From Candidatus Iainarchaeum sp. (GTDB taxonomy: Archaea; Iainarchaeota; Iainarchaeia; Iainarchaeales; GCA-2688035): DNA of 21,710 bases. Location: the NCBI GenBank assembly GCA_028713935.1, contig JAQTNI010000020.1, positions 1-21,710 of the forward strand. The letters are read 5' to 3'. The notes below the pieces were generated by a model. The model had not been told where the DNA came from, ran no database searches, and saw nothing but the letters and a program-made list of their open reading frames with translations. Positions 2,349 to 19,918 of this stretch are shown piece by piece (positions within the stretch are counted from its first letter, which is position 1; each line of letters starts with the position of its first letter). The translations under genes were made by a program, and so were the position numbers.

Positions 2349-3253
2349 AACGACTATCAGAGTATACATAACTATTATTTGGCTGCTGAAGTTTCTCGCT
2401 CCCTGCTTTTTACTTTCCAAATCCCGTGACAAGTGCTTTCAGGCCAGTTGAAATCCGAACCGCCCATAAAAGCGCCTTTAAGCCACTTCTATAATGAGGG
2501 GGTTTGGCGATTAAACGCATTCTATTCCACTTTAAGGCTATTTGGGGGCATTATGAAAACTTTTTTTCCATTACAAAAACGCTTATTTTGGCTAATAGAA
2601 GCATTTTAAGCGGGTTAATGGCTAAAATGGCACCATGCGTATAGTCGTATATCCATGATTATCCAGCACTTTTACCTTAGGGAATTATTTTATTTTTAAA
2701 AAAATTCGCATCAAAAAGCCCCTTAGGGGAAGAAGAGGGGTTGCCTTAGGAGCAAACTGGGGGGGGTTTTAGGCCACTTCCAAAACAAAGTTATGTATAC
2801 AAAAGCAGTATTTCCCGCTTTCCAGCCTTTTTAGGGGAAACAGGAAATGCATTAATCCGGATTTTTTAATGCATTCAAAAAACTTCCAGTGCTTTGTGAA
2901 CTATTTTTAACATTGCAAGGCAAAAGCAGCAATTCTTTCCAGAATACTGGCATTTTTATTAAAAAAAAGCAATTTTTTTCAGCCAGATTTTTTAGGGTTT
3001 TTTTTGCAATTGCCCTGGCTCTTTTAGGCATTATCAAGCCGCAAGAAAACAATTCTTTTTCAGTTATTTTTGCTGTTTTTCTTGTTTTTAATGTGATTCT
3101 AATGCCCATTGCTTGTTGTTTTTGGAAGGTTATTGGGGAGCATTAGCTTGCATGGCTGATTGCCCTCACACATTCCTGTCCGGCTGCCTTGTTTTTAAGC
3201 CAAAAATAGTGCAAAAAGATAAATATTATGTATCATTATACTACATAATTTGT
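2349..3253. other. About 900 nt without a convincing ORF; the core at about 2400-2850 is locally G-run and short-repeat rich
   Basis: The six-frame track has no ORF of 60 aa or more between 2349 and 2851, and only a mirror pair of 85-aa ORFs at 2852-3146. Repeats read directly: CCTTAGG x3 (2675-2750), TTAGGGGAA x2 (2723, 2831), TTTA(A/G)GCCACTTC x2 (2476, 2767), G-runs up to G8 (2759-2766), and a 12-nt inverted repeat at 2362-2373 / 2789-2800. Confidence 0.5.
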
Positions 3254-5735: not shown

Positions 5736-6398
5736 ATGAAAAACTCAAGATTTTTGTTTTTGTCTTTTATTGCGCTTTTGTTCTTCTCTTCCTATGCTTT
5801 TGCAAACACTTCCACTACCACAATGACCTGGAATGTGCCTTCCAACAAGAGCCATTCTGTTTCTTATGGCGGGAGCTGTTCTACAACTGCTTTCTTTTTT
5901 GTTGAAAGCAATGCAATTATGGATTCTGACGCTGATGGCAATGCTGCCAAGATTCTGCCTTACAACCTGAGAAGCGATGGCACTGCTTGCCAGGCAGCCG
6001 GCACTGCCGGCATGATTATTACCAATACTGGGAATGTTGCAATTAATATTGATGCAAATTTTGCTTCTGCCCTTGATACCAATACCTGGCTGAAAATCTG
6101 GATGGGCAATGGGGATGCAGGCACTGATTGCGGCACTGCAGGCTTTGGCGGATGGGCAAAGCTTTGTGCCTTGCCTGGAGCTGCTGATACTGCCACCCCT
6201 GTTACTTATACTGATTGCAGGGATTTTAACAGCAACAACAGCACTACTGCTGCAAGGCTTGTTTCAGGCCTTCCAATTGGCGATACAAACCATTTGTGTT
6301 TTTCCGGTGAATTTGTAGGGCCTGTTATAACTGTGCAAGCCAATGTCACTTCCGGCGACCATAATGGGACTTTCCAGACTTCAACCGATGTCAGTTAA
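5736..6398 (+). CDS. Secreted Cys-containing protein of unknown family ('S module'), related by eye to the C-terminal ~160 aa of the 1492-aa protein
   Basis: 220 aa. It has a Sec-type signal peptide MKNSRFLFLSFIALLFFSSYAFA followed by NTS, is rich in T/S/G/N/A, and contains six Cys. Landmarks shared with nt 10516-10995 are listed in the findings. Confidence 0.75.
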   Translation: MKNSRFLFLSFIALLFFSSYAFANTSTTTMTWNVPSNKSHSVSYGGSCSTTAFFFVESNAIMDSDADGNAAKILPYNLRSDGTACQAAGTAGMIITNTGNVAINIDANFASALDTNTWLKIWMGNGDAGTDCGTAGFGGWAKLCALPGAADTATPVTYTDCRDFNSNNSTTAARLVSGLPIGDTNHLCFSGEFVGPVITVQANVTSGDHNGTFQTSTDVS

Positions 6399-6409
6399 AC
6401 CCATATTCC

Positions 6410-6424
6410 TTTTTATTGTTTTTT
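6410..6424 (+). terminator. Oligo-T tracts (T5, T6) after the secreted-protein gene; candidate archaeal intrinsic terminator
   Basis: T5 at 6410-6414 and T6 at 6419-6424, within 30 nt of the stop at 6398. Archaeal RNAP terminates at oligo-T (established knowledge). Confidence 0.3.
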
Positions 6425-6450
6425 GTTTAATTTGATTGCAGGTATTGCCA

Positions 6451-7377
6451 ATGGATGACACGCAGGTTCAGCAAAAAAAATCGCCTCTTGTTTTTATTTC
6501 AATAATCCTTGTTGTGGCAGTTGTTTGCATTGCGGCTTTTGTTTTTTTGCAGCAATTTTTGCCCCAAAATTCTGTTGGAAATTTTTTGGTTTCAAATGAT
6601 GCGCAAAGCGATGTGATTAACCCTTCGCAGTTTGTTTCAAGGGAAGATTACTTCAGGGAAGTTTTCAAGCCGCACAGGAACCAATATGGGCTTTTTGGCA
6701 AGGCAGCTGATTTTTTGAAAAAACCTGTTTCTGAAATTCCAGCTTATTTTGGGCTTAATAATGAACAGGAAATTTTTGAAGCTTTGCCTGAAATTCCAAG
6801 CGATTTCAGTGATATTGCTTATTTGTTGGCGCAGGGCAAATATTTTGACCTTGGCTTGCTTGATGAAAGGTATTACAAGCAGCCTGAGTTTTATGACAAT
6901 TTTAAGACTCTTGGCGTAAGGTATTGGACAAGGCCTGACCCAAAATATTGGGTTGCAAATGGCTATGGAACTTATCCCGCTGAGCAGTGGGATTCTCTGC
7001 AGATTGGCCAGAGAGAGGATTTTAAAGGCGTTGTTTTCTTTTATTCCAGCTGGGGAGTCCAGTCTTTTCAGGGAGTTTCACTTAGCCCTGATTCTGAATC
7101 CCAAAAATATTTTGACATTCAGATAACTCCTAAAACTTTTTTGCTTGAGCCTTCTTTTCCAAAATTCGGAAAAAACTGGGCTTATAAAATTGAAATTGCT
7201 GGAAAATTGAAGCCCAATACTCCTCCGGGAGTTTATCATGTTGGAATTAATGTGGAAGTTCCTCCCAATGAATTCAGAAGCAAGTGGGCTTTGGAGCACA
7301 AGAATATTTATTTTGATGCTGCAAATGCAATTCGGCCTGCCGGAAACCAGATTCAGTTTGACATAACAGTAAAATAA
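6451..7377 (+). CDS. Membrane-anchored protein of unknown family ('P protein', copy 1); paralogue of 9666-10487
   Basis: The ORF track starts at a TTG at 6436; I prefer the ATG at 6451 (MDDTQVQQKKSPLVFISIILVVAVVCIAAFVFL, a single N-terminal TM). The ~260-aa ectodomain shares the blocks QPEFY, YW, GV(Q/R)SFQG and LL(E/G)PSFPKF with copy 2. Confidence 0.75.
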   Translation: MDDTQVQQKKSPLVFISIILVVAVVCIAAFVFLQQFLPQNSVGNFLVSNDAQSDVINPSQFVSREDYFREVFKPHRNQYGLFGKAADFLKKPVSEIPAYFGLNNEQEIFEALPEIPSDFSDIAYLLAQGKYFDLGLLDERYYKQPEFYDNFKTLGVRYWTRPDPKYWVANGYGTYPAEQWDSLQIGQREDFKGVVFFYSSWGVQSFQGVSLSPDSESQKYFDIQITPKTFLLEPSFPKFGKNWAYKIEIAGKLKPNTPPGVYHVGINVEVPPNEFRSKWALEHKNIYFDAANAIRPAGNQIQFDITVK

Positions 7378-7448
7378 CCTGATTTTAATTTTGATGTTGA
7401 ACTCTGTCAAGCGTAAAATAAATAAGGGCTGAATGCAATAATATACTC

Positions 7449-9308
7449 GTGGCTTGTTACAAAATTCCTGCAATTGCATTGTTTTTTTTCTCGTTTGCTT
7501 TTTTCTGTCAAACAGCAGTGGCCAATGAGGGTGCCTCTCTTGTCAACTGGGTTGTTGACAATCCAAACAGCCTTGCCCTTGGCATTGCCGCAACAACCTG
7601 CATGAATTATCCCGGGAATAATTCAATTGTTGTTACAGTAATAAGTTATCCCCAGAACACTCTGAATCCAAATTCAACTGTGACAGCAACTCTTTTTGAG
7701 CCAAGCGGAGATGTTAACAGCAATATTCCTTTTTCAAATAATTCCGATGGGACTTATTCAAAAGCCATGAATTTTGATGCAAATGGCACTTTCAAGCTTG
7801 CAGTGCATGCAGTGAGCGACACCAATGCGGGCATTACTGGTGATGCAAATGCCTATATCTATGTCGGTTCTTTTGACATGAACATTTCTTTTTTGAACAA
7901 CAATGCTTCTTATAATCAGGGGGATTCCGGAAGCATCAGGAACATGGTGAAAAATTCCGATGGAAACTCCTTTGTTGGGCTTTCTAGCACTACAACTATT
8001 TTTTATCCGTCTTCTTCTGTTTTTGTCCTGGATGCAACAATGTCTGGCCTTGGCACTGGCGAGTATTATTACAATTTTATTGTTCCAAGCGTTTCAGGAA
8101 CTTATTCTGCCACTTCTGCTTTTTCTTGCGGGCTTTCAACTGATTCAAATTCCAGCGGCAGGTTTACAGTTGCTTCTTCTTCTGTGCCACCATCTGCACC
8201 AACTATTACTCCTGGCGGCGGAGGCAGTGGCGGAGGAGAAGGGCCAGCAAGCCAGCCACTTGAGGAGGAAGCATTGAAAATAATTGAGGCTGGCTTTGAC
8301 AAAAACCTTGAGCTTGACCTGCCTTCTTCTGTTTATGTATTAGTTTCAAATACTGGCAGAAAACCAATTCCGTTTAATCTTTCTATTGAAATAAAGCAGG
8401 GCGATTCAGTGAAGTATTCCTCTGAATTTCTTGTGCCAATACTGGAGCCCGGAAAAACCAGAAAAATTTTTGCCGATGCCAAATGGACTCCTGTTTTAGG
8501 AGGCTCTTACAGGATATTGGCAGAGGCTTCTTCAATTGATAAAACCAAGGTTTTTTCCAGCCTCATTGAAAAGTTTGTTGTTGGAGGGGGAATATGGCGC
8601 TATGATATTTCTGCTGAGTGCCTGAAAAAAGAAGTGAAAATCAATGAGACTGCCGATGCAAGGATTATGCTTTTGAATCTTGGAAATTATTATGAGGACA
8701 CTGCGCTTGAATGGTGGGTTGAAAACAGCAAAGGCCTTGTAATTGGAAAAAGCTCTTTTACGCTTGCCCTGTATCCTGATGAGAACAGGCTGGTCCAGAG
8801 GGAAGTTTTTATTCCGGAAGGCACTCCTGAGGGGGATTACATTTTCAAGGCAAAAATAAAACTTAACGGGTTTGAACAGGTTTCCTTTTGCTCGTTCAAG
8901 GTGAAAGGAATTGGCGATTACAACAGTGTTTTGGATCAGCTTGAAAAAAACCTTGCTGGCCTTGATGATTTTATTGCAAAGGCAAAGGCAAACGGCATTG
9001 ATGTTTCCGCAGAGGAAGAAGCCGAATTGAATGCCTTGAAAACCGCATTTTCAAATTTGAAAAGTCTGGCTGCAAGCGGGGAAACCGCATTGCTTTCCCA
9101 AAAAACCCAGGAAATTCTGAATGGCATAAATAATTTGATTGACATTTTTCATGCAAAGCAATTGAAATCAGGCCTGATAAAAATTTTTTGGATTTTTATT
9201 GTTGTCCAGTTAAGTTTAATAATTTCCTTGGCCGTATTATGTTATTTTGAAAGAAAGGCTTTTGCCAGGCTGCTCGGGCTTGCGGATGGCAAGGGCAAAT
9301 ACAGGTAA
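7449..9308 (+). CDS. Surface protein: signal peptide, Ig-like region, Gly-rich linker, two CARDB-like beta-sandwich domains, coiled coil, C-terminal TM anchor
   Basis: 619 aa from a GTG start (no in-frame ATG before the signal peptide MACYKIPAIALFFFSFAFFCQTAVA). The linker PPSAPTITPGGGGSGGGEGPASQP is at nt 8181-8258. CARDB-like strings are VYVLVSNTGRKPIPFNLSIEI...LEPGKTRKI...GGSYRILAEA and ARIMLLNLGNYYEDTALEWWV...EGDYIFKAKI. The TM segment LIKIFWIFIVVQLSLIISLAVLCYF is at nt 9174-9248, followed by a basic tail. Confidence 0.8.
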   Translation: MACYKIPAIALFFFSFAFFCQTAVANEGASLVNWVVDNPNSLALGIAATTCMNYPGNNSIVVTVISYPQNTLNPNSTVTATLFEPSGDVNSNIPFSNNSDGTYSKAMNFDANGTFKLAVHAVSDTNAGITGDANAYIYVGSFDMNISFLNNNASYNQGDSGSIRNMVKNSDGNSFVGLSSTTTIFYPSSSVFVLDATMSGLGTGEYYYNFIVPSVSGTYSATSAFSCGLSTDSNSSGRFTVASSSVPPSAPTITPGGGGSGGGEGPASQPLEEEALKIIEAGFDKNLELDLPSSVYVLVSNTGRKPIPFNLSIEIKQGDSVKYSSEFLVPILEPGKTRKIFADAKWTPVLGGSYRILAEASSIDKTKVFSSLIEKFVVGGGIWRYDISAECLKKEVKINETADARIMLLNLGNYYEDTALEWWVENSKGLVIGKSSFTLALYPDENRLVQREVFIPEGTPEGDYIFKAKIKLNGFEQVSFCSFKVKGIGDYNSVLDQLEKNLAGLDDFIAKAKANGIDVSAEEEAELNALKTAFSNLKSLAASGETALLSQKTQEILNGINNLIDIFHAKQLKSGLIKIFWIFIVVQLSLIISLAVLCYFERKAFARLLGLADGKGKYR

Positions 9309-9320
9309 AACGGTGGTCAA

Positions 9321-9650
9321 ATGGCTTTGCAAATTGACGATTCAACAATTTTAATTTTGCTTTCGGCCCTGTTGTTTATTCTCAACATTGTGATTGTCCT
9401 GATCGTTTTTTTCATGGCCACGCGCAACAGCAGGAAAATCCTGAGAAAGCTTCTTTTTTTTGAGGAAAATACTGTAAAAAAAATCTCTTCTTTGGAGCAA
9501 AAAGCCGCGGAAATTGAAAAAGCAGAGCTTTCCCTTGAGGAAAATGTCCTGGCGCTTGGCGAAAAAATAGATTCTTTGGCTGCATTGAAGGAAAAGGCGC
9601 AAGCAGAAAGGGAAATTATTGTGCATTCCCACAGGCATCCGCACAAGTAA
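9321..9650 (+). CDS. Small membrane protein with an N-terminal TM segment, a coiled coil and a His-rich C-terminus
   Basis: 109 aa. A GGTGG SD lies at 9312-9316, 4 nt before the ATG. The TM segment is ILILLSALLFILNIVIVLIVFF, followed by an E/K/A/L heptad-like region, and the protein ends HSHRHPHK. I judge the equal-length mirror ORF on the minus strand to be a shadow. Confidence 0.65.
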   Translation: MALQIDDSTILILLSALLFILNIVIVLIVFFMATRNSRKILRKLLFFEENTVKKISSLEQKAAEIEKAELSLEENVLALGEKIDSLAALKEKAQAEREIIVHSHRHPHK

Positions 9651-9665
9651 GCTAATCTTTGGCTT

Positions 9666-10487
9666 TTACTGAATTGTCAAAGTTATGCGCGCAACTGTTT
9701 TTTCCCCCACAAAATCAGTCGCATTGTAATAATTTGAATATTGATTTTTCCATTCCAAGGCCTGTTTTTCTTCAGGCGCTTTTGTTTTCAGCAGCATGAC
9801 AATTTGTTTTGGCTGTGCATTCTGCATTACTTCAATTTCAGAGTCTATTTGCCTTGCCCATTTTTCATCAAATTTTGGAAAGCTCGGCCCCAATAAAAAC
9901 CCGCTGCTGGTTTCCGAATCCAGTTTTATTTTGGCAAAAGCAGAGTCTTCCGGATTTTCAAATTCCGCAAAAATTTTTAATCCCTGGAAACTTCTCACTC
10001 CAAACCCCGAATGCAAAAAAAGCCTTGTTTTTGTTTTTGAACCGGCTTTTGCAGTTATTTCCCTGTCAAAAGAAGAAGCACCGAATCCAACCGCGCCCCA
10101 GTGCGTTGCAACAGGATTTTTCCAGTATTGTATTCCGCCTTCAAGAAAAGCCGGATAAAATTCCGGCTGCAAGAAAAATTCCTTTGTGAAAAAAAAGTCA
10201 TCAGAAAATTTTCCTTCCCTGTACAATTGCATGATTGAATCAAAGCATTTTGGCGGCTTTGGAAGGGATTCAAACACTGCAGGCGGGATATTATAAGAAT
10301 CCCGGTTCAGGTCAATGCAGCCCGCGATTTCATTATTTTGAAAAAAGCCCTGTTCTTTTGCAGGCGCTGTTGGGCTGGAATTAAAAAAAACAAAAAAAAT
10401 TGCACAGGCAAAAACGGCTGCTGCGGAAATAATTGCCATTGTTTTTAATTTTGGCAAGCTTTTTTTTTCAAAAGAAAATTTTTGCAT
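9666..10487 (-). CDS. Membrane-anchored protein of unknown family ('P protein', copy 2); paralogue of 6451-7377
   Basis: I trimmed the start to the ATG at 10487 (MQKFSFEKKSLPKLKTMAIISAAAVFACAIFFVFF). The longer track ORF would overlap the end of the giant gene. It shares conserved blocks with copy 1 and lies 25 nt downstream of the giant gene. Confidence 0.75.
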   Translation of the reverse strand: MQKFSFEKKSLPKLKTMAIISAAAVFACAIFFVFFNSSPTAPAKEQGFFQNNEIAGCIDLNRDSYNIPPAVFESLPKPPKCFDSIMQLYREGKFSDDFFFTKEFFLQPEFYPAFLEGGIQYWKNPVATHWGAVGFGASSFDREITAKAGSKTKTRLFLHSGFGVRSFQGLKIFAEFENPEDSAFAKIKLDSETSSGFLLGPSFPKFDEKWARQIDSEIEVMQNAQPKQIVMLLKTKAPEEKQALEWKNQYSNYYNATDFVGEKTVARITLTIQ

Positions 10488-10512
10488 AAAAAACACTAAA
10501 ATTATTCCTGCT

Positions 10513-13500
10513 TCATGGGGCAATGCTTGTGCTGCTGGCATTTTTATCAGTACGCCCTGGAACAGCACTGTTAAAATCTCCCCAGATAAAAATATTCAAA
10601 TCCTGGCTTTCTGTTGTAAAAACAGCTTTGCCAATGTTTGCTGCAGTTGTAGTTGCCTCTGCACAATTTGAATCGGTGTTTCCCGTGCATGCCCATGCCC
10701 AGCCTTCATAAATTTTTGAAACTTTTAAATGCAGTGTTCCTGACAATGCCTCATTCAGGTCAAGCGTAATATTCAAATCAGAGCTGCTTGTGCTTTGGTT
10801 GTCATAAACAAAAAAAGGAATCAGGGAAGTCTGCCCTTCAGGGTCAACCTTGTTCTGGTCAGCAAGCCCGCTTAAATCAGTTGTTTCAAAATATCCTTTC
10901 TGGCATGCCCCGTTTCCAGAGTCAATTCTTCCTTTTCCAGAAGTGCAGCCGCTTGAAGGCAGCATTAATACGAAAGAATAATCCGCTGCTCCGCCTAAAA
11001 TGTGAAAGCTGTTTGCCTGGCTTTTTTTTCCGGTTCCATTATTGTCCTGTGCTGTTCCCTGCACATAATAATTCCCGTCCGCTGTGCCTGTTGAATCCCA
11101 AACATAAGTGCAGTTTGCGTCTTTAGTTGTTGTTGGCAATGAAGCATTGCAGGACCAGTTTGCATAATTTTGCCTCAAAAAAAATGCATTGCTGTCTTGG
11201 GCAGAATTCTTTATTATGTTTAAGTCAATTGTTGCATCTGCATTTGTTCCCGCGCTTGAAATATTGAAATCTATTTGGATATTTCCAGAATATTCGCCAA
11301 CACCTGGGCTTATAATGTCAATGTAGGGGCTGTTTTGGTCGTAATGATAACCAATGCTTCTGTTGTAATCCAAGCGGTTGTCAAATCTCACAGTTCTGCC
11401 CTGAAACCAAGAATCTGTTCCAGTAGCGGAATTTCCATGCCCTTCTAATTGTGCAATTCCATAGGCATTTAACAAAAAATTTCTGTCAGAGCCCTCATCT
11501 ATGAATGGGGTTTGCCCCAAATAAATGCTTTGGCTTCCTTCAGTATAGCCTGCAGTGTTTGTGTCATTTGCCCAGAACGCGTTAAAATTAGCGTCAATGC
11601 TTGAATTGGAAATATTGCGGGTGTAGACTGCTGTTCCAGTGTTGTAAGCAAAAACATTGTTGTAGAAATTGGTTATGCGTGAGGTTCTAGCCGCTTGCAG
11701 AATCCTGTTGCTGATTGCACCTCCAAAAAGATCTGCAGAGTTGTTCACAAAAGTGTTGTTGTGCATGCTTGTTATTGACGCGTTGCCTGCTGTATTAAGC
11801 CCCTGGCCTATCATGCTGATGGCGCCTCCGTTTTTGTCTGCAGAGTTGTTTTGGAAAAGATTGTTGTAAACGGTTGTAATATCTCCGCCAGCACTGTATA
11901 TTGCGCCTCCGTTGCCTGTTGTTGAATTATTGGCAAAAACATTTTTGTAAATGCTTGTGGCAGTTCCCAGATTAAAGTAGGCAGTGCCGTTGGTTGTGCT
12001 GCTGTTATTGGAAAAATTGTTGTCAAAAAAATTTGTAAGGGTAACTGAAGAAAAAAATACTCCCGCAGATGTTGCTGTGGAGGAATTGTTGTAAAAAACA
12101 TTTCCAAAAAAATTTGTAACAGTATTGGTGCTGAATTTTACCGCAGTGCCGCTTCCACTGTTGTTGCCAAAAAGATTGTGGTTAAAGTTTTGGATAACCC
12201 CATTTGAAACCAAGACACAAGGCCCAGTGTTGTTAACAAACGTGTTCCCATTAAAATCTATAATCGAAACACTAACACCAGCCAAATTTATTATTCCACT
12301 CGTGGGTGGGGGGCTGTTTCCTGAAAAAGTATTGTTGTAAATACCTGATATTGGGAAATTGGAATAAATCGCGTTTCCATAAAGACTTGTTGAAACATTC
12401 ACAAAATTTGTATCGTGAATGGAATTAATTGCCCTTTCCAAATAAATGCCATTAGAAGCATAGGCAATGTTCAAGTCGAAAAAATCGTTGGCGTCAGCAG
12501 TAACCCCTGCATCAGTGGTAAAATAGATAGCGGTGTCATAATCCCCAGCTACCGGAGCTCCGCTGCTGCCGGGTGCATTCGTGCCGACGGAATTGTCATT
12601 CATGCTGGTAAAAACAATCTTATTGGCGCTTGTTCCCTGGGCCTTCAAAACGCCGCCATTGACGACACTCAAAAAGGCGTTTCCGCCCGCTTTGAGTTTT
12701 ACAACTACACAGGGATTTATTGTCAACTGGCAGTCTGAAACATCAGCATTGCCATCCACGTTCAAAAAATAGGTGTTGCCCGCAGTCCAAACCTGATTAT
12801 TGTCAGGGGTATTGCAGATGGCTTGGCTTAGTGTAACCAAATCCTGCAATTCCAAGTAATCACCCAGGCCTGTTTTGTCTGTTGAGAACCACATTGAAAC
12901 AATGTTGTTTGCAATGGAAATTTTGTATGGCTTGAATCCCGCGTTCATTTCCTGCGAAAAATCCCTTGCCGCAGAATTGAACAAAAGGCTTGTTCCCAAA
13001 AAAACATTTTCGGAGTCAAAAATAATCTCTTTTGTCTCCCCGTAAGCCAATTTCTCCCAATTAAATTTTGTTTCCAAATGGCTGTAATTGCAGTCGCATT
13101 CCGGATTGTAATCTGTCAGTAAAACCTGCTGGACCAGGCCGAATTTGGCGTATTGCCCCGAGTCCTTTAATTGTGTATCCAATGAAAAATAAAATTCGCT
13201 TGGATTCCATGTGCCGTTAATTGTTTTTGGCTTGATTTTGTGTTTCAGGAGGAGACTTTTTCCTTTTTTTTCAGGCAAATAATCCAGGTCCAGCTCGTTT
13301 TTTGCGACTTCAATTTTTGTATTCTTGTAATACGCGCTGAAATCCGGCTGTATCCCGGAGTTGTTCAAAATAATCTGGCCCTTGTTTTTACTGTCATATT
13401 CTATGTCAATTGCCCCCACTTCTATAAGGCCAGGTGTTTCGTTTGCAGGCCCCTGGGTTTTTTCAGCGCCAAAAACATTCAATCCAGGGGAGATTTTAGC

Positions 13501-14991
13501 TTCTGAAACAATGCCCCATTCTGTGCATTCCTTAATGCCGGAATCCCAGCCATTGCAGGCATAAATTTTTCCTGAAAATTCCTGTTTGAACTGAACAGAA
13601 CCGCTTTCCATTTTGAATGGGCTTGATATTCCAAAAGCATGCAAAGTTATTTTCTGTTCCGCAGGGGCTTGTGCATTTGAAGCGCTTTCAGCAATGCCGC
13701 CTTTTGCATTTCCAAAATCCTGAAATTCAAGCAGTGTGCCATTTCGGCCAATTTCAATGCCCCTGAAAAAAACACTGGAAAAATCCCTGTTTTCAAATGC
13801 CAGCAAAGCATTGTAAATTCCATTTTCAATTTCAACTGGCTCCGAAGCCTCAATTATTTTGTTTTCATTGAGGTCAAACAATGTTAGGCTTGCGGGGATA
13901 TTTGCAGGCATTATTAAAAATTTTTCTTTTTCCTGTGCAACCCCATTTTGGTCGCTGGTTGCAGGCTTTAGCCAGGCAAATGCAATTGGAGATTCTAAAA
14001 ATTCCATTGAAATGCTGTTTTCTGCAGAATCAATTATTTCCCAGTTTCCAATGCATTTCTGCTGTTCTTTTTCCCATGATTGGCATTTTGCCAGCTTTGC
14101 ATTGTTTTTGTTCTCAATCGTTACAATGCTTTTTTGTTCCCGCATGCCAAAATCCATTTCCGCGCTTTCTGCAGCCTCAAATTCATTTTCCCCAATGATT
14201 ATTTTTTCCTGCAAAATATTTTGTTTCAGCACTGCAATTGCCCTGTTCCGGTTCAATAAAAATTCCGGAAGAATTATTGCTTTTGCAGGGCCTTCAAAGG
14301 CATCAAGGTTTGCATAATATGTTCCCGCAGGAATTATTTTTGCATCCCCACTCAGCGTGTAAAGCTGGTTTAGCGTTGCAATATCCCTGATATAAACAAG
14401 GCTCAGAAAATTTGGCGGGCGTATTTCAAACAAGGCTTCTTCAGGAACTTGCACAGGAGAAGCCTCTTCAGGAAATTGCAGGGGCTTTTCAGGACTGCCG
14501 GTTTGCAGCATGTTTTCATCCGCAATAACTGCATTACTGTCACTGTTTCCTGTTTCTTCGCTGTTGTTTTCCTGAAACAATGTGTTTTCAACTGTTACTT
14601 CAAAAAATTTTTTTGAACAAGCAGTTTCATAGCACGCTTCAATTTCAAACGCATAATTTCCATCGGCAACTGTGTTGGAATCCCATTCAGCAATCCAGTT
14701 GTTTTCCGCTGACAAGTTTTTTTCAAAATGAGTTATGTTTAAGTCAGCCTGCAATAGCCTTACAACTGCGCTTGAAACAGTTTCAGGATTTTCAGGCTTT
14801 ACAATTATTACCATTGAGCCCTGTATTTTGTCGCCTGAAAAAGGCGCAACAATTGCAATTTCAGGCGCCTGAATGGCATTAATTTGGGGTTCAGGGCTGT
14901 TGGAATCTATTTGTGCAAAAGAGACTACTAGCGGAAAAATAAGCAACAACAAGGCAGTCTTTTGGATAAAACCAATTTTTTTTAAATTCAT
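10513..14991 (-). CDS. Giant secreted adhesin-like protein: signal peptide, Ig-like domain, acidic linker, two tandem Cys-pair domains, parallel beta-helix with PMP-type repeats, second Ig-like domain, C-terminal S-like module
   Basis: 1492-aa uninterrupted ORF. The signal peptide is MNLKKIGFIQKTALLLLIFPLVVSFA. The Ig-like signature WDS-x-x-x-ADGNY occurs twice (nt 14584-14865 and 10996-11328). The beta-helix carries GGAI and F-x-x-N motifs. There is no C-terminal TM segment or PGF-type sorting signal. Confidence 0.9.
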   Translation of the reverse strand: MNLKKIGFIQKTALLLLIFPLVVSFAQIDSNSPEPQINAIQAPEIAIVAPFSGDKIQGSMVIIVKPENPETVSSAVVRLLQADLNITHFEKNLSAENNWIAEWDSNTVADGNYAFEIEACYETACSKKFFEVTVENTLFQENNSEETGNSDSNAVIADENMLQTGSPEKPLQFPEEASPVQVPEEALFEIRPPNFLSLVYIRDIATLNQLYTLSGDAKIIPAGTYYANLDAFEGPAKAIILPEFLLNRNRAIAVLKQNILQEKIIIGENEFEAAESAEMDFGMREQKSIVTIENKNNAKLAKCQSWEKEQQKCIGNWEIIDSAENSISMEFLESPIAFAWLKPATSDQNGVAQEKEKFLIMPANIPASLTLFDLNENKIIEASEPVEIENGIYNALLAFENRDFSSVFFRGIEIGRNGTLLEFQDFGNAKGGIAESASNAQAPAEQKITLHAFGISSPFKMESGSVQFKQEFSGKIYACNGWDSGIKECTEWGIVSEAKISPGLNVFGAEKTQGPANETPGLIEVGAIDIEYDSKNKGQIILNNSGIQPDFSAYYKNTKIEVAKNELDLDYLPEKKGKSLLLKHKIKPKTINGTWNPSEFYFSLDTQLKDSGQYAKFGLVQQVLLTDYNPECDCNYSHLETKFNWEKLAYGETKEIIFDSENVFLGTSLLFNSAARDFSQEMNAGFKPYKISIANNIVSMWFSTDKTGLGDYLELQDLVTLSQAICNTPDNNQVWTAGNTYFLNVDGNADVSDCQLTINPCVVVKLKAGGNAFLSVVNGGVLKAQGTSANKIVFTSMNDNSVGTNAPGSSGAPVAGDYDTAIYFTTDAGVTADANDFFDLNIAYASNGIYLERAINSIHDTNFVNVSTSLYGNAIYSNFPISGIYNNTFSGNSPPPTSGIINLAGVSVSIIDFNGNTFVNNTGPCVLVSNGVIQNFNHNLFGNNSGSGTAVKFSTNTVTNFFGNVFYNNSSTATSAGVFFSSVTLTNFFDNNFSNNSSTTNGTAYFNLGTATSIYKNVFANNSTTGNGGAIYSAGGDITTVYNNLFQNNSADKNGGAISMIGQGLNTAGNASITSMHNNTFVNNSADLFGGAISNRILQAARTSRITNFYNNVFAYNTGTAVYTRNISNSSIDANFNAFWANDTNTAGYTEGSQSIYLGQTPFIDEGSDRNFLLNAYGIAQLEGHGNSATGTDSWFQGRTVRFDNRLDYNRSIGYHYDQNSPYIDIISPGVGEYSGNIQIDFNISSAGTNADATIDLNIIKNSAQDSNAFFLRQNYANWSCNASLPTTTKDANCTYVWDSTGTADGNYYVQGTAQDNNGTGKKSQANSFHILGGAADYSFVLMLPSSGCTSGKGRIDSGNGACQKGYFETTDLSGLADQNKVDPEGQTSLIPFFVYDNQSTSSSDLNITLDLNEALSGTLHLKVSKIYEGWAWACTGNTDSNCAEATTTAANIGKAVFTTESQDLNIFIWGDFNSAVPGRTDKNASSTSIAP
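11557..12354 (-). repeat. About ten degenerate coding repeats (23-34 aa each) of the type (I/V)T-x-(F/Y)-x-NN-x-F-x-NNS...GGAI; polymorphic-membrane-protein-like parallel beta-helix rungs
   Basis: Read from the translation: GIYNNTFSGNS, IDFNGNTFVNNTG, IQNFNHNLFGNNSG, VTNFFGNVFYNNSS, LTNFFDNNFSNNSS, SIYKNVFANNST..GGAIY, TVYNNLFQNNSADKNGGAIS, SMHNNTFVNNSADLFGGAIS, ITNFYNNVFAYNTG, IDANFNAFWANDT. At DNA level this shows as a recurring ATTGTTGTA on the + strand. Confidence 0.7.
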
Positions 14992-15485: not shown

Positions 15486-16517
15486 CTACCTGCTTTTCGT
15501 TATTTTAACTTTTTTCAGTTCTTTCAGGCTTTTTGCCCCGCTCAAAAACATTGCAATTCTCAATTCTTCAATTATTTTTTCCAAATATTTTTTCACGCCT
15601 TCTTTTCCCGCTTCCTGCTGTGCCTTTAGCACAGGCAGCGCTATTCCGGCCATATCCGCGCCCAGTGCAATTGCCTTTGCAATGTCAAGCCCAGTCCTTA
15701 TCCCGCCTGAAGCAATTATTTTTTTCTTGAAGGCTTTTCTGCATTGCACAATGCTTTCAGCTGTTGCTATTCCATAATCCCAGAATGTTTCCCCCAGCTC
15801 CTTGTTGCCTCTGAGGGAGTCTATTCCTGTCCAGCTTGTTCCGCCTGCGCCTGCAACATCAATTGCTTTTATTTTTGTTTTTGCAAGCTTTTTTGCAACA
15901 GAAAACCCAATTCCATGGCCGACTTCTTTCACATAAACAGGCTTGCTTAATTTTGCGCTTATTTTTTCAATTGCATTCAAAACTCCTTTGAAATTTGTGT
16001 CTCCTTCTTTTTGCAGTGCTTCCTGTGCTGCATTCAGGTGAATTGCGAGCGCATCTGCCTTTATCTCTTCAATTGCTTTTTCTATTTTTTCAATCGGGTA
16101 CTGTAATAATTGGGCTGCGCCAATGTTTCCCGCAAGAAAAATTTTTGGCGCAATGTCCCTTACAAAATAAGTTTCTTTCAAAGCGGGATTTTCAATCATT
16201 GCCCTCATGCTTCCCAATCCCATTCCAATTCCAAGCTCTTCACACGCGCCTGCAATGTCCCTGTTTATTTGCCTTGCTTCTTCTGTTCCCCCTGTGATTG
16301 CCTCAACAATTATTGGTGCAGAGAATTTTTTTCCAAGGAATTCCGCCTGCAAGGAAATTTCTTTTTTGTTTATTTCGGGCAGGGTTTTGTACTCCAAATC
16401 AATTCCCTTGAAGCCGATTTTCTCTAAGCCAGTTGTTTTTTCCCTGAACTGGACATTCTCGCTGCACGCAATTTTCAAGTGCTCTGTTTTCCTATTCTGG
16501 GTTTGCATTTTCATCAC
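15486..16517 (-). CDS. fni: Type 2 (FMN-dependent) isopentenyl-diphosphate delta-isomerase
   Basis: 343 aa. N-terminal RKTEHL, then EAITGGTEEARQINRDIA, GLGSMRA, AGNIGAAQL, ALAIHLNAAQEALQKEGDTNF, VKEVGHGI, IDVAGAGGTSW and ASGGIRTGLDIAKAIALGA all match the IDI-2 family in order. The start could be GTG 16517, ATG 16514 or ATG 16508. Confidence 0.93.
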   Translation of the reverse strand: MMKMQTQNRKTEHLKIACSENVQFREKTTGLEKIGFKGIDLEYKTLPEINKKEISLQAEFLGKKFSAPIIVEAITGGTEEARQINRDIAGACEELGIGMGLGSMRAMIENPALKETYFVRDIAPKIFLAGNIGAAQLLQYPIEKIEKAIEEIKADALAIHLNAAQEALQKEGDTNFKGVLNAIEKISAKLSKPVYVKEVGHGIGFSVAKKLAKTKIKAIDVAGAGGTSWTGIDSLRGNKELGETFWDYGIATAESIVQCRKAFKKKIIASGGIRTGLDIAKAIALGADMAGIALPVLKAQQEAGKEGVKKYLEKIIEELRIAMFLSGAKSLKELKKVKITKSR

Positions 16518-16539
16518 TTGTTTTTACTATTAATTGCTT

Positions 16540-17235
16540 TTACCTTCTTTTAATTCTTCTTTGTTTTCTTAAAGTCGCTCGCAATTCTGCATCAGGGTTT
16601 ACTGCCTTGAACCTGATTGTTGTTCTTTTTATTGTCCTGCGGGTTCTTCTGATTGGCAGGTTTCTTGTCATTGCCAAATCTGCAACAGTATCCCCAAAAT
16701 ACTTTGTTTTTTTTGGGTCTAATCCAAACCTGCCAATTATTGTTCCAACTGCATTTTGCTTGAAATTTTTTAAATCCCGCGAAGAGCATTCCCCAGTATA
16801 TTTTCCGTTTCTTGCCCTGAACCAAAGTCCATACACATAATCAAGGCCAAGCAGTTCAATTAATGGGCTGACACATTCTATTGGCGATAGGCTTACTGCT
16901 GCAACAATTCCTCGTTTTTTTTCGTGTGCAACTAGTGCTTTTGCGTTTGAAAAAAAATTGCCACTATTTTTTCTAACCAATTCCCTTGCAAATTTTGTAA
17001 CCTGTGCATTGCTTTGCCCTTTTATTCCTTGGGCATATGCTTCAACAACTTCTTTTGCTGCCTCTGCATATGGTGTTTTTCCGGCTTTGTATCTTGCCAG
17101 TGCGGAATCTATTTTTCTCAATTCTTCTTCTGAGAAAATCCCCTTGCTTGAAAGTAAATGGGCAAGTTCTACAATAAAATAGCCTTTGTACAATGTTCCG
17201 TCCACATCAAAAATCGCACCAGATTTTCCCGCCAT
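16540..17235 (-). CDS. HAD-superfamily hydrolase, subfamily IB-like (phosphoserine-phosphatase-like fold)
   Basis: 231 aa. Motif I is IFDVDGTLYKGYF, followed by a helical cap region, motif IV-like FGDTVADL, and a late AVNPDAEL as in HAD-IB. The C-terminal 42 aa are unusually Arg/Lys-rich. It starts 1 nt after the IPK stop. Confidence 0.8.
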   Translation of the reverse strand: MAGKSGAIFDVDGTLYKGYFIVELAHLLSSKGIFSEEELRKIDSALARYKAGKTPYAEAAKEVVEAYAQGIKGQSNAQVTKFARELVRKNSGNFFSNAKALVAHEKKRGIVAAVSLSPIECVSPLIELLGLDYVYGLWFRARNGKYTGECSSRDLKNFKQNAVGTIIGRFGLDPKKTKYFGDTVADLAMTRNLPIRRTRRTIKRTTIRFKAVNPDAELRATLRKQRRIKRR

Positions 17236-17236
17236 T

Positions 17237-18043
17237 TTACAACCTTATTTTTGTTCCTTCCACTTCTTTTCCAACCAATGCATTGAAAACATTTTCAGGC
17301 TTTGTTGCATCAAAAACAATTGTTTCTATTCCTGAAGACATTTGCCTTATTTTCAATAGTTTTCCCTTCATTCCCTGTGTAACATCAATTGCTGTTGATT
17401 CTCCCGCCTGTTCAATTATTTCATCAAAATTCTTCTTATTAATCAATTCTATTCTCTTCGCATTCTTTTCCTTTTTTGGGTCTGCAGTGAAAACTCCCGC
17501 AACATCTGTTCCCAAAAAGATTTTTTTTGCTTTCAATTTTTTTGCTATGTTTGCAATTGTTGCATCCCCTGAAACAACGCTTCCTTTCAGCTTTATGTCG
17601 GGGCACATTGTGCCGTTAAGCACTGGTATGATTTCTTGGTTCTGCCTGAATAATTCTTCAATAACTGAAATGCCCTGTGAAGAGATTTTTTTGTTTTTCT
17701 GGATAGTAATTGCAGATGCTGCAAGCGGATATGCAAGCAATCCTTCTTCCCAGAAAATCCTGCTTACTTCCTGGTTCAAAAAATTGCAGTCTATTGCTAC
17801 TTTGCAAAACCCTTCAAAGTCTTTTGCGCTTTTCAGGCCATTGTTTATATTGTAATTTGCAACATTTGTGTGCCCGAAAGGGCCTGCGCCATTGACCATT
17901 ATCAGCCTGAATTTTTTTTCTTTCCTTGCCCTTGCAATTTCCTTTGCAGTGTTTCTTACTGCCCCTTCATTTACCCTGAACTGGTTCTCGGCCTTGTTTG
18001 TGCAAACAGAACCGCCAAGCTTCATTATGTATAAATCAGGCAT
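17237..18043 (-). CDS. ipk: Isopentenyl phosphate kinase (amino-acid-kinase fold)
   Basis: 268 aa. IMKLGGSVCTNK and LIMVNGAGPFGH match the IPK signature (KLGGS ... HGGGSFGH). The C-terminal half is amino-acid-kinase-like, with VSGDA and GTDVAGVFTADP. A GGTG SD lies upstream. Confidence 0.9.
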   Translation of the reverse strand: MPDLYIMKLGGSVCTNKAENQFRVNEGAVRNTAKEIARARKEKKFRLIMVNGAGPFGHTNVANYNINNGLKSAKDFEGFCKVAIDCNFLNQEVSRIFWEEGLLAYPLAASAITIQKNKKISSQGISVIEELFRQNQEIIPVLNGTMCPDIKLKGSVVSGDATIANIAKKLKAKKIFLGTDVAGVFTADPKKEKNAKRIELINKKNFDEIIEQAGESTAIDVTQGMKGKLLKIRQMSSGIETIVFDATKPENVFNALVGKEVEGTKIRL

Positions 18044-18046
18044 TCT

Positions 18047-18679
18047 TTACACCTTTAATTCTAATAATTCTTTCAAACTATTTATTACTTTGTCTGCGCC
18101 GGATTTTTTTAATTCCTGCTTTGTAAATCCTGATGCTGTTATCCCTATTGCAAGCATGTTTGCATTTTTTGCTGTTTGCATGTCAACTGGAAAATCCCCC
18201 ACATAAGCGCATTCTGCAGGCTTAGCTTCAAGTTTTTCTGCAATCATTAGAAGGGTGTTGGGCTCTGGTTTTGGCGCTTTTGTTTCTTCCCCCGCAACAA
18301 TTATTTCAAAAAGACCCAGCAATTTTTCCGGAAAAACAATTTGATTTCTTGGGGAGGCGCTGAAAATTCCTAATCTGGCTTTTTTCTTTAATTCTTCTAA
18401 TATTGTTTCTTCTTTCGGGAATAACAATTTTTTTCCAACAATCAGTTTTTTGTAAATAGCAATTTTTTTTTCTGTTATCTTTTTATAATCCACTTTTGAC
18501 TTGTGCTTTTCAAGGCCCTGCCTTATTACTTCGCTTGTAGGCTTGCCAATCATTTCTTTTATTTCTTCTTTTGAAAAATGCGCTCCTGCTAATTCGAATG
18601 CCTGCTTGTATGCTTCCAAGTGATAGGGCACATCGTTTACAAGCACGCCATTGAAATCGAAAATCAGCGCTTTCAGCAT
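18047..18679 (-). CDS. HAD-superfamily hydrolase, subfamily IA-like (beta-phosphoglucomutase / phosphatase-like), with motif I reading D-F-N
   Basis: 210 aa. Motif I is LIFDFNGVLVND, motif II is IFSAS, motif III is KPKPEP, and motif IV is VGDFPVDMQTA. It starts 2 nt after the upstream stop. Confidence 0.8.
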   Translation of the reverse strand: MLKALIFDFNGVLVNDVPYHLEAYKQAFELAGAHFSKEEIKEMIGKPTSEVIRQGLEKHKSKVDYKKITEKKIAIYKKLIVGKKLLFPKEETILEELKKKARLGIFSASPRNQIVFPEKLLGLFEIIVAGEETKAPKPEPNTLLMIAEKLEAKPAECAYVGDFPVDMQTAKNANMLAIGITASGFTKQELKKSGADKVINSLKELLELKV

Positions 18680-18681
18680 AA

Positions 18682-19887
18682 TTATGTTTCAATTCCTTTT
18701 TGTTTCAAAATTGCTTTCACATTCTCGTTGAGGATTGTTCCTTTCTGGCTTATTGGCAGTACTTTTGGTGCGCCTGCCTTGTCTACAAAGTGCACTGGCC
18801 AGTCTTCTGAATGCCCAAGCCCTTTTACATAGTCTTCAATTATTGTTTTCACTTTGTTTGCTTCTTGTTTTGTTGTTATTATTGCCAGGCTTGGCCCTGT
18901 GTCCATTGAGGCGTAGCATGGAATGCCTTCTTTTCTCATTAAATTTATTTTTCTTAAAATGTCCAATGTTTCAGGTTCCCAGCTGAAAAAGCTTCCTCCG
19001 CTTACAAGGATGTGAAACAAATTCAATGAATCAAGTTCTGCAATTTTTCCAATTGCCGCAACATCATCCGCCTTCACTGCTTCCATCAACTTGATGCATT
19101 TTTCTGGTTTTTTCATTGCCCAATCCTGGTACCATTCGCTTTTTTCCCCGCTTCCATGGGCGTCCTCTGTTTTTATTTTTGACGGGATAGGCACTGTAAT
19201 TACTTTCAGGTTTGTTTCTTCTTTTTTGTCAAATCTCACTCCATAACTTTCAAGCGGCTTTATTCCTTTGTAGCTCAGCCATATGCTCCAGCCTCCTGCT
19301 GCGCTGCTTGTTCCGCTTCCTGAAAAATACCTTGCTAATACGCTTAAAAATCTTGAATTTGTTTTTAATTCCGGCATCAGCGCTTCAGTGAAAGCCATTG
19401 CTGATGCGCCTGCTGCTGCAGCGCTTGTTCCAAGGCCTTTTCCTTTTGCCTGAACCTTTGCAATGTTTTCTGAGACAAAAACAAATTTTGTTTTAATTCC
19501 TGTCCATTCATTCAATCTTTCAAGCATTACATCCATTCCCTTCAAGCCTTTTGTGTCTTCAATCAGTTTTCCATCCACAAGGAAAACATTTTCTTTCAGG
19601 CTTTTGTCAAACTTCAGATAGGTTACTGCTTTTGTCGTGTCATGGCACATTTTTATTTGCGGAAAATAGGCTATTCTTTCTGCCTTGTCAGCATTTCCCA
19701 TGTATTTTTCTATTCCCATTATTGGATAAGCTTCCACCAGAACTTCTGCGTCGCTTTCTTTTACTTTTGGTATTTTTGGCCATTTTTCTTCTTCCCAGCC
19801 AATATTTTTTTTCAGCCATGCTTTGCATTTTTCGTTTCCTTTTTTTATTGCCAGCAATTCTGTTTTTGTCAAATCTGTTGCAGCCAT
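18682..19887 (-). CDS. GHMP-superfamily mevalonate (mono/di/bis)phosphate decarboxylase-family protein; exact activity (PMD, MDD, mevalonate-3-kinase or bisphosphate decarboxylase) not resolvable by eye
   Basis: I moved the start to the ATG at 19887 because a perfect GGAGG lies 7 nt upstream. The track start is a TTG at 19911, and the trimmed product is 401 aa. Family motifs in order are IMGIEKYMG (cf. IKYWGK), GKGLGTSAAAAGASAMA (GHMP motif II), ARYFSGSGTSSAAGG (cf. R-x-GSGSACRS) and YASMDTGPSLAI (cf. T-x-DAGPN, with the Asp retained). Confidence 0.85.
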   Translation of the reverse strand: MAATDLTKTELLAIKKGNEKCKAWLKKNIGWEEEKWPKIPKVKESDAEVLVEAYPIMGIEKYMGNADKAERIAYFPQIKMCHDTTKAVTYLKFDKSLKENVFLVDGKLIEDTKGLKGMDVMLERLNEWTGIKTKFVFVSENIAKVQAKGKGLGTSAAAAGASAMAFTEALMPELKTNSRFLSVLARYFSGSGTSSAAGGWSIWLSYKGIKPLESYGVRFDKKEETNLKVITVPIPSKIKTEDAHGSGEKSEWYQDWAMKKPEKCIKLMEAVKADDVAAIGKIAELDSLNLFHILVSGGSFFSWEPETLDILRKINLMRKEGIPCYASMDTGPSLAIITTKQEANKVKTIIEDYVKGLGHSEDWPVHFVDKAGAPKVLPISQKGTILNENVKAILKQKGIET

Positions 19888-19894
19888 TTTATCT

Positions 19895-19899
19895 CCTCC
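19895..19899 (-). promoter_or_regulatory. Shine-Dalgarno GGAGG for the decarboxylase-family gene
   Basis: CCTCC on the + strand at 19895-19899, i.e. GGAGG 7 nt upstream of the ATG at 19887 on the minus strand. Confidence 0.6.
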
Positions 19900-19918
19900 T
19901 GCTTTCTTCAAAATTTGT

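Follow-up and report, generated by a model that had tools for sequence, protein, structure and literature searches.

A paired gene module of Iainarchaeota and Micrarchaeota that may build a donor-strand-type surface fibre

Little is known of how DPANN archaea recognise a host and become attached to it (PMC11329633). The closest described systems for the genes reported here are mostly donor-strand fibres. The haloarchaeal Tat-fimbriae (tafi) have been modelled as a tip, a shaft and a transmembrane (TM) anchor (PMC11821415, PMC12337348), a precedent for the layout that we consider below. In Bacillus, the mature N-terminus of the accessory protein TapA mimics that of the fibre subunit TasA (AFHDI versus AFNDI; PMC10151520), a precedent for the relation between two of the secreted proteins of the present locus.

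Here we describe two adjacent gene families, S and P, that occur as pairs twice in a contig of Candidatus Iainarchaeum sp. (JAQTNI010000020.1, assembly GCA_028713935.1), of which positions 1 to 21,710, the whole stretch that was analysed, are referred to as the window. One pair consists of a small secreted protein, S, and a membrane protein, P1; the other, on the opposite strand, consists of a giant secreted protein and, after a gap of 25 nucleotides (nt), the P1 paralogue P2. An initial annotation, made from the DNA letters alone, had picked out both pairs, and the open reading frames (ORFs) of S, P1, P2 and the giant all lie where it had placed them. In a homologue search P1 proved identical to an NCBI protein from Candidatus Iainarchaeum (Diapherotrites, DPANN). 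The module is specific to the DPANN archaea Iainarchaeota and Micrarchaeota, and its core is an undescribed, Sec-exported β-sandwich domain of ~170–190 amino acids (aa), here called S-like, that occurs either free or as the very last domain of large, variable proteins resembling adhesins. Our analysis confirmed and extended what the annotation had observed, and supported in part the way in which it had interpreted it.

For comparison we assembled 31 loci from the neighbourhoods of P and S homologues and from a scan of one genome per GTDB species, and scored their ORFs with local hidden Markov models (HMMs). These loci originate from Iainarchaeota and Micrarchaeota/Norongarragalinales, with one bin labelled Chloroflexi.

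The S-like domain of S and of giant proteins

A BLASTP comparison of S with the giant gave no significant match (best E=1.4, in the wrong region), and the S profile HMM scored below zero on the giants. The kinship emerged in profile–profile comparison. When the S profile (44 sequences) was aligned by hhalign to a profile of 63 C-terminal domains, the match reached 84–87% probability (P=4–8e-6) over 89 columns, as against P=0.045 for the best of 30 column shuffles and P=0.2 for the reversed profile. Furthermore, Micrarchaeota encode free-standing proteins of 180–250 aa that match both the S and the C-terminal-domain HMMs. In profile–profile comparison these intermediates align with the C-terminal domain at 99.4% (P=4e-21) and, after removal of the signal peptide and the N-terminal strand, with S at 94% (P=1e-7). 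A joint alignment is colinear across the whole domain and contains an invariant Gln, Q86 of S. The bridging Micrarchaeota intermediates are the decisive evidence; on these sequence profiles S is homologous to the final ~165 aa of the giant, a relation visible by profile methods only.

The initial annotation had proposed this similarity by eye, in the same register as that returned by hhalign. Its landmarks NI.D.N...AL...LK, GW..C, TTAA and G(E/D)F were matched correctly, but 'ACQ' was mis-registered, as the invariant Q86 of S aligns with 'PEGQTS' of the giant and not with 'ACQK'.

The giant has a Sec-type signal peptide and a variable N-terminal part that includes an NN(S/T)-rich repeat region. 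It was said to have no TM segment or known sorting signal, and indeed we found no TM helix, no hydrophobic segment at its end ('...RTDKNASSTSIAP'), and, in Pfam and NCBIfam, no match to PGF-CTERM or to the C-terminal domain of the type IX secretion system (T9SS; TIGR04183). Weak Chlam_PMP/POMP repeat matches were all that these databases returned. A HMMER search with the last 301 aa of the giant over 1.84 billion representative proteins found 98 relatives. The last ~160 aa form a discrete domain, the end of which lies no more than 21 residues from the C-terminus in 71 of 79 diverse proteins, in line with the idea, also put forward in the annotation, that the S module is portable. In four of the eight exceptions the match stops short of the protein end by more than 200 aa. 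Full-length members span 229–2598 aa and have unrelated N-terminal parts; in giants of 1047–1689 aa, conservation is limited to the last 200–300 aa. A Pfam search of seven C-terminal-domain proteins, made to name the passenger parts, gave weak MG2 matches only. One giant carries Laminin_G_3. In one of the eight exceptions, the giant of locus L001, a second match fragment shows that an insertion splits the C-terminal domain.

The S-like domain accepts large loop insertions. In several giants (L001, 12496–17565; L016; L038) the C-terminal domain is split by ~170–390 aa, and one free S homologue, P0176 (441 aa), has a loop insert of ~210 aa.

S itself has a Sec-type signal peptide (aa 1–23) and six invariant Cys, and each of its 43 homologues (199–271 aa) is free-standing. 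Its N-terminal strand has the consensus 'TTTMTW.VPS', in which T28 and W32 are found in at least 90% of sequences; the giants lack an S-type strand motif ahead of their C-terminal domain. S also contains a DxDxDGN loop, in which D67 and N69 are invariant and D63, D65 and G68 are at least 90% conserved. From its motif, this loop is likely to bind Ca2+. The DxDxDG(N) loop is restricted to S of Iainarchaeota, being absent from the C-terminal domain of the giants and from the S-like proteins of Micrarchaeota. A merged-profile search of a 5.8-billion-protein set revealed no new family or phylum; its sole additions were a variant of S in which ~210 aa are inserted into a loop, and a single weak match of 99 aa.

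Pairing with P and the wider gene unit

The annotation held that an S module is always followed by a P protein. Among 45 non-redundant P genes from Iainarchaeota and Micrarchaeota contigs, 44 adjoin an S-like gene, and the remaining one is at a contig edge. A clear S-like gene is located immediately upstream on the same strand in 38 cases and in another arrangement in three, while three P genes follow a weakly S-like ORF of 203–206 aa. These genes were found through P, and to remove that bias we fetched metagenome loci via the C-terminal domain. P is directly downstream in 8 of 8 informative loci of this kind, the other two being cut by contig ends. The rule thus holds well beyond chance, and P does adjoin S-like modules outside the window. 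The mirror orientation on which the annotation remarked is incidental; all genes are co-directional in L003, L009, L013, L014 and L018.

P sequences cluster by the type of their partner. All Iainarchaeota P beside a free S fall into one cluster, and the P genes beside giants, P2 among them, form other clusters. Near-universal adjacency in both directions, together with this clustering, speaks for P as a dedicated partner of the S module, as had been suggested. Most Iainarchaeota loci have the giant–P2 pair as an addition to the unit, and in some Micrarchaeota loci (L019, L026) a giant and a free S-like gene have a single common P.

P1 and P2 are 31% identical over 225 aa (BLASTP, E=4e-28), which bears out their proposed homology, and each has one N-terminal hydrophobic helix, as predicted. 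P1 has 34 homologues. Both S and P merit the description of undescribed families given to them at the outset, with no Pfam, NCBIfam or PDB sequence match to either. For S, a Pfam search of 44 members gave nothing significant, including no TasA/Peptidase_M73 (PF12389) and no TafA/DUF1102, and profile searches of PDB sequences with the S alignment and with the merged S-like alignment returned nothing at E≤10. For P, the corresponding PDB search also returned nothing at E≤10, and P1, P2 and the other members of the P alignment have no Pfam match. For the five window proteins Pfam and NCBIfam gave nothing significant, and P matches no enzyme family; membership of a well-known one unrelated to surface proteins would have spoken against the interpretation in the annotation.

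The unit is larger than the two pairs, and has two further conserved members, a 619-aa protein and a small protein with a TM helix and a coiled coil. The larger of the two has a signal peptide, a β-rich ectodomain, a coiled coil, a C-terminal TM helix and a cytoplasmic tail, and gave weak MG2/YtkA matches. Genes of its family (~570–780 aa) lie directly downstream of the S-adjacent P in 24 listed loci, and divergently adjacent in L001. BLASTP found no significant match between S and the 619-aa protein, the S HMM matches it at the N-terminus only, and the likeness of the family to S is confined to the first ~10 mature residues. In that segment, the N-terminal strands of S and of the 619-aa family change together across five clades. 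In Iainarchaeota the motif is 'TTTMTW' in S and 'T.TW' in the 619-aa family; in Micrarchaeota clade A it is 'D[YF]A.T.V.F' in both; in Micrarchaeota clade B it is 'TTPVRF' in S and 'SVPLRI' in the 619-aa family. The best 8-mer score between S and 619-type N-termini was 22.4 within a locus, a value reached by none of 20000 permutations, and 9.0 across clades; the N-termini were cut by hand and the clades amount to about five independent events.

After the TM helix, the tails of all 619-aa family members (homologues in L001, L003, L005, L006 and L007) are basic and have one or two copies of 'LLG[LIFV]', and the conservation of this tail suggests a conserved cytoplasmic contact.

The gene for the 109-aa protein is the conserved last gene of the S–P–619 operon; its family (HMM match E=4e-22) is present in L001, L003, L005, L006, L007, L011 and L018. 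In two more distant loci (L006, 3242–9894; L007, 2361–9893) the operon adjoins type-IV-filament genes, namely a T2SSE ATPase and two T2SSF genes. A KaiC/DnaB_C-like ATPase gene and a DUF7504 gene are also near the operon in these loci, and L001 has the same pair close to its cluster. The Micrarchaeota loci that diverge most (L028, 10856–11650; L030, 5922–6845) have a gene for a MinD/ParA-type ATPase (GKGGVGKS) after the 619-like gene.

Predicted folds and a possible surface fibre

The AlphaFold2 (AF2) model of S (predicted local distance difference test score, pLDDT, 89) is a β-sandwich, and in this monomer model the conserved N-terminal segment lies outside any sheet. In a Foldseek search of the PDB the model had weak matches (best E=0.014, TM-score ~0.3), and ~20 of the 42 top matches were donor-strand fibre subunits: TLP-1a/b, AbpA, CfaB, TasA, SafA, PapA, FimA, the PapG pilin domain and the Saci_0406 thread. 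AbpA (7ueg) was matched at E=0.016 with a probability of 0.77 and TasA (8aur) at E=0.11, with TM-scores of ~0.3–0.38; the Sulfolobus thread (7pnb) was at rank 39.

The AF2 model of P1 (pLDDT 87.5) consists of a TM helix, a disordered linker or stalk, a helical domain (aa 64–160) and a C-terminal β-sandwich. By Foldseek the latter has the MSP/VAP and PapD-like fold (best E=3.5e-5), and the chaperone–usher chaperones Caf1M (E=1.4e-4) and FaeE (E=1.5e-4) are among its matches. As modelled, P would be a type-II membrane protein with a flexible stalk that bears a helical domain and an MSP/PapD-like β-sandwich. Its invariant residues are L, P, E, G, G, W, P and W, with Y287 nearly invariant, and include no recognisable Cys/His/Ser catalytic set. 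By hhalign P is unrelated to S and to the C-terminal domain (P values of 0.08 and 0.7, respectively); P is, therefore, not a degenerate pilin.

Our preferred reading, to which we would give even chances, is that the module builds and anchors an adhesive proteinaceous surface fibre, a fimbria of the donor-strand type. Weak-to-moderate fold similarity and analogy with known fibres suggest strand exchange, fibre formation, its polarity and a chaperone role for P. After export, P would capture the S-like domain at the membrane, P2 taking the C-terminal domain of the giant and P1 taking S. The conserved amphipathic N-terminal strand of mature S would then insert into the S-like domain of the preceding subunit (donor-strand complementation), resulting in a fibre with the giant at its tip and S as its shaft. 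The 619-aa protein, which has both an S-type strand and a C-terminal TM helix of its own, would cap the fibre and anchor it to the membrane, or else start it. The giant, with its variable N-terminal part and C-terminal acceptor domain, would correspond to a tip adhesin of the FimH/PapG kind, the 619-aa protein to an initiator or terminator of the TapA/TafF kind, and P1 and P2 to membrane-tethered holders or chaperones of freshly exported S-like domains. The lack of a strand motif in the giants is what would be expected if the tip subunit only accepts a strand. The MSP/PapD-like fold of P and the proximity of S to fibre subunits point to P as a tethered chaperone or holder in a fibre-assembly system rather than a static receptor.

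A more specific version is possible, though we hold it to be somewhat doubtful: the module would be the first chaperone-assisted donor-strand fimbria of archaea, in which tethered P proteins with a PapD-like fold, each matched to one kind of pilin-like module, replace both periplasmic chaperone and usher. They would keep the end at which the fibre grows on the cytoplasmic membrane, with S being added beneath the giant tip adhesin. A chaperone-like component would be new, because the authors who described archaeal bundling pili, threads, cannulae and tafi report finding none.

Several observations weigh against the proposed donor-strand fimbria, and that same reported absence of a chaperone-like factor from the other archaeal donor-strand filaments is one of them (PMC9245690, PMC9715654, PMC12518558, PMC12337348). 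The likeness of S to fibre subunits is weak (Foldseek E of at least 0.014, TM-score ~0.3), and sequence profiles connect S neither with TasA, AbpA or pilins nor with any PDB chain. The immunoglobulin-like (Ig-like) topology of the PapD/MSP-like fold is widespread; P has one such β-sandwich domain and true pilus chaperones have two; and Pfam gave no significant PapD match in any of 38 P members, one reaching E=0.14. When P was searched for an internal strand co-varying with the N-terminus of S, as the donor strand of a chaperone might, the only trace was a weak W..P coincidence. Moreover, there is mostly one P per S-like gene, which is more like a stoichiometric partner than a catalytic chaperone.

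The last point is what would be expected if, as the initial annotation proposed, the S-like domain simply docks on P as on a permanent membrane receptor and no polymer forms. The giant with P2 and S with P1 would then be stable 1:1 surface complexes, possibly joined by β-strand complementation. The clustering of P by partner type, its N-terminal TM helix and long stalk, and the lack of any anchor in the giant itself agree with such docking, and in haloarchaeal tafi the single-TM proteins TafF1 and TafF2, which have β-sandwich ectodomains, have been proposed as anchors (PMC12337348). Static docking, however, gives no role to a free 220-aa S without a passenger domain, and leaves unexplained why S shares a co-varying strand with a 619-aa protein that is separately anchored. 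L019 and L026 have only one P for the giant and the free S-like gene together, and the folds nearest to S are those of fibre subunits. We consider docking of this kind unlikely, and contact between S and P is but one of the ways in which the giant may be retained on the cell; the donor-strand fimbria is a better-supported alternative.

S could instead be the small subunit of a two-dimensional surface layer (S-layer) or sheath, into which the giants co-assemble via their C-terminal domain, with the 619-aa protein as a SlaB-like stalk and P as an assembly factor. The β-domains, coiled coil and C-terminal TM helix of the 619-aa protein are indeed SlaB-like, six Cys are conserved in S along with a DxDxDG loop of the Ca2+ type, and the C-terminal domain would serve as a co-assembly module. 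Such a lattice seems distinctly improbable, as the window proteins match no S-layer models in Pfam or NCBIfam, the top Foldseek matches of S are linear fibre subunits and not S-layer proteins, and the DxDxDG loop is missing outside S of Iainarchaeota. S-layer proteins of the known Micrarchaeota kind were rejected as a candidate, the known one being a different, 101-kDa protein with TIGR01564/TIGR01567-type domains (bioRxiv 10.1101/2021.04.28.441871). Many unrelated passenger proteins have the domain at their very C-terminus and a dedicated membrane protein encoded alongside, which would also fit a secretion or sorting tag, like that of T9SS or PGF-CTERM, which P recognises and perhaps removes or modifies. 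We regard a tag as very improbable: the invariant residues of P provide no Cys/His/Ser catalytic set, P matches no enzyme family, the domain is also abundant as a free-standing protein without a passenger, and the giant already has a Sec signal peptide.

The locus supplies two undescribed protein families that are strictly paired, a portable C-terminal module as the common mark of an entire set of variable giant surface proteins of two DPANN phyla, and a candidate membrane-tethered assembly factor. The parts list for a surface fibre, comprising tip, shaft, anchor and partner, would be complete. If the donor-strand fimbria is real, it shows a way of organising donor-strand assembly where there is only one membrane, and the S-like C-terminal domain becomes a sequence handle for DPANN adhesins in metagenomes. 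It would be an archaeal donor-strand fibre built from two new families, with a real chance that a missing class of component is added. A chaperone-assisted fimbria would, in addition, be a prime candidate for the host-attachment apparatus of Iainarchaeota and Micrarchaeota, because the system is confined to these episymbiotic DPANN phyla.

The features of the window are listed in Table 1. In the remainder of the window, ~900 nt between a radical-SAM gene and the next gene (2349–3253) contain no convincing ORF; scans of the window for tRNA genes and Rfam families gave no match, with a best Rfam E=0.059 for 2349–3253. The flank at 15486–20776 encodes, to judge from translations only, archaeal isoprenoid-pathway proteins, including type-2 isopentenyl diphosphate isomerase-like and isopentenyl-phosphate-kinase-like ones; these genes fit an archaeal origin and have no bearing on the S–P finding. 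Among the compared loci, L018 (JAFCCG010000026.1, labelled Chloroflexi bacterium) holds a full archaeal cluster, consisting of a C-terminal-domain protein, P, S, P, a 619-like protein and the small protein, and is probably a misbinned Iainarchaeota contig.

Table 1. Features of the S–P unit, in window positions
Feature	Position	Strand	Remarks
S gene	5736-6398	+	220 aa, secreted, free-standing S-like domain; proposed fibre subunit
S mature N-terminal strand, aa 26-35 'STTTMTWNVP'	5811-5840	+	proposed donor strand; conserved in consensus
S DxDxDGN loop, aa 63-69	5922-5942	+	likely Ca2+ site, inferred from motif
P1 gene	6451-7377	+	308 aa, partner of S
P1 N-terminal TM helix, aa 12-36	6484-6558	+	AF2 model
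P1 β-sandwich, aa 172-307	6964-7371	+	AF2 model, Foldseek
619-aa secreted protein gene	7449-9308	+	proposed membrane anchor or initiator
619-aa protein N-terminal strand, aa 26-36 'NEGASLVNWVV'	7524-7556	+	resembles S strand
619-aa protein C-terminal TM helix, aa 576-600	9174-9248	+	
619-aa protein cytoplasmic tail with 'LLGL'	9249-9305	+	'ARLLGLADGK'
109-aa protein gene	9321-9650	+	N-terminal TM helix and coiled coil, 'R.SN..L.K' motif
P2 gene	9666-10487	-	273 aa, P1 paralogue, partner of C-terminal domain of giant
P2 TM helix, aa 17-35	10383-10439	-	
Giant gene	10513-14991	-	1492 aa, secreted; proposed tip adhesin
S-like C-terminal domain of giant, aa 1326-1492	10516-11016	-	domain HMM covers aa 1326-1491

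Comparison with known systems

With TasA–TapA of Bacillus and the AbpA–AbpB bundling pili, the module would share a secreted jelly-roll or β-sandwich subunit with an N-terminal donor strand, as proposed for S, and both TasA and AbpA are among the top, though weak, fold matches of S. As TapA does for TasA, the 619-aa protein copies the mature N-terminus of the subunit, here clade by clade, and its weak MG2-like matches recall the core of TapA, reported as macroglobulin-like (PMC9245690). S, however, has no Pfam TasA (PF12389) or PDB sequence match, no dedicated signal peptidase is encoded near the S–P cluster, and the 619-aa accessory protein has a C-terminal TM anchor. The bacterial and the bundling-pilus systems, for their part, lack a protein corresponding to P, and in neither is the subunit domain fused to giants.

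The haloarchaeal Tat-fimbriae (TafA/C/E/F) resemble the proposed layout of the module in their modelled tip, which combines a pilin-like with a laminin-G-like domain, in their shaft and in their TM-anchored terminator. In Natrinema they include two single-TM paralogues with β-sandwich ectodomains, TafF1 and TafF2 (PMC12337348), and the Laminin_G_3 found in one giant is a laminin-G-type domain as reported for TafC. In contrast to Tat-fimbriae, S, the 619-aa protein and the giant have N-termini of the Sec type without an RR (twin-arginine) motif. The proposed tip protein has its pilin-like domain at the C-terminus, TafC at the N-terminus, and S has no DUF1102 match. TafF is reported to resemble TafA, whereas P is not S-like (hhalign P values of 0.08–0.7), and the phyla are different.

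Sulfolobus threads (Saci_0406/0405) also have a Sec-exported subunit and donor-strand complementation, as proposed for S, and an adjacent paralogue proposed as a cap. In the thread cluster, however, neither a chaperone-like nor a TM partner was found (PMC9715654); the threads have no giant fusion proteins, and there is no detectable sequence relation between the threads and S. With the C-terminal domains of T9SS and PGF-CTERM proteins the module shares its logic: many large, unrelated surface proteins end in one portable domain, for which there is a dedicated membrane component. Unlike these signals, of which that of T9SS has ~80–100 aa and goes with a PorU-type sortase, the S-like domain is ~165 aa long, is homologous to a free-standing secreted protein, and lacks both a TM helix and a PGF motif. 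P spans the membrane once, has no catalytic triad, and is neither a sortase nor an archaeosortase-like polytopic enzyme.

From chaperone–usher pili (Fim/Pap/Caf) the module differs in that usher and outer membrane are both missing. The latter is absent from archaea, and among the called genes of seven annotated loci we found no usher-type Pfam match and no recurring large β-barrel-like gene. P is membrane-tethered and has one β-sandwich and a helical domain instead of two Ig domains, a separate P paralogue accompanies each type of S-like module, and there is no sequence similarity to PapD_N, PapD_C or the Fim/Pap pilins. What the module has in common with these pili are β-sandwich subunits that are exported by Sec and have a conserved strand at the N-terminus; a putative tip adhesin that joins a variable N-terminal part to a C-terminal pilin-like domain, a likeness of architecture only; possibly a terminator or anchor subunit; and a partner with a PapD/MSP-like β-sandwich, here P, with Caf1M and FaeE among its Foldseek matches.

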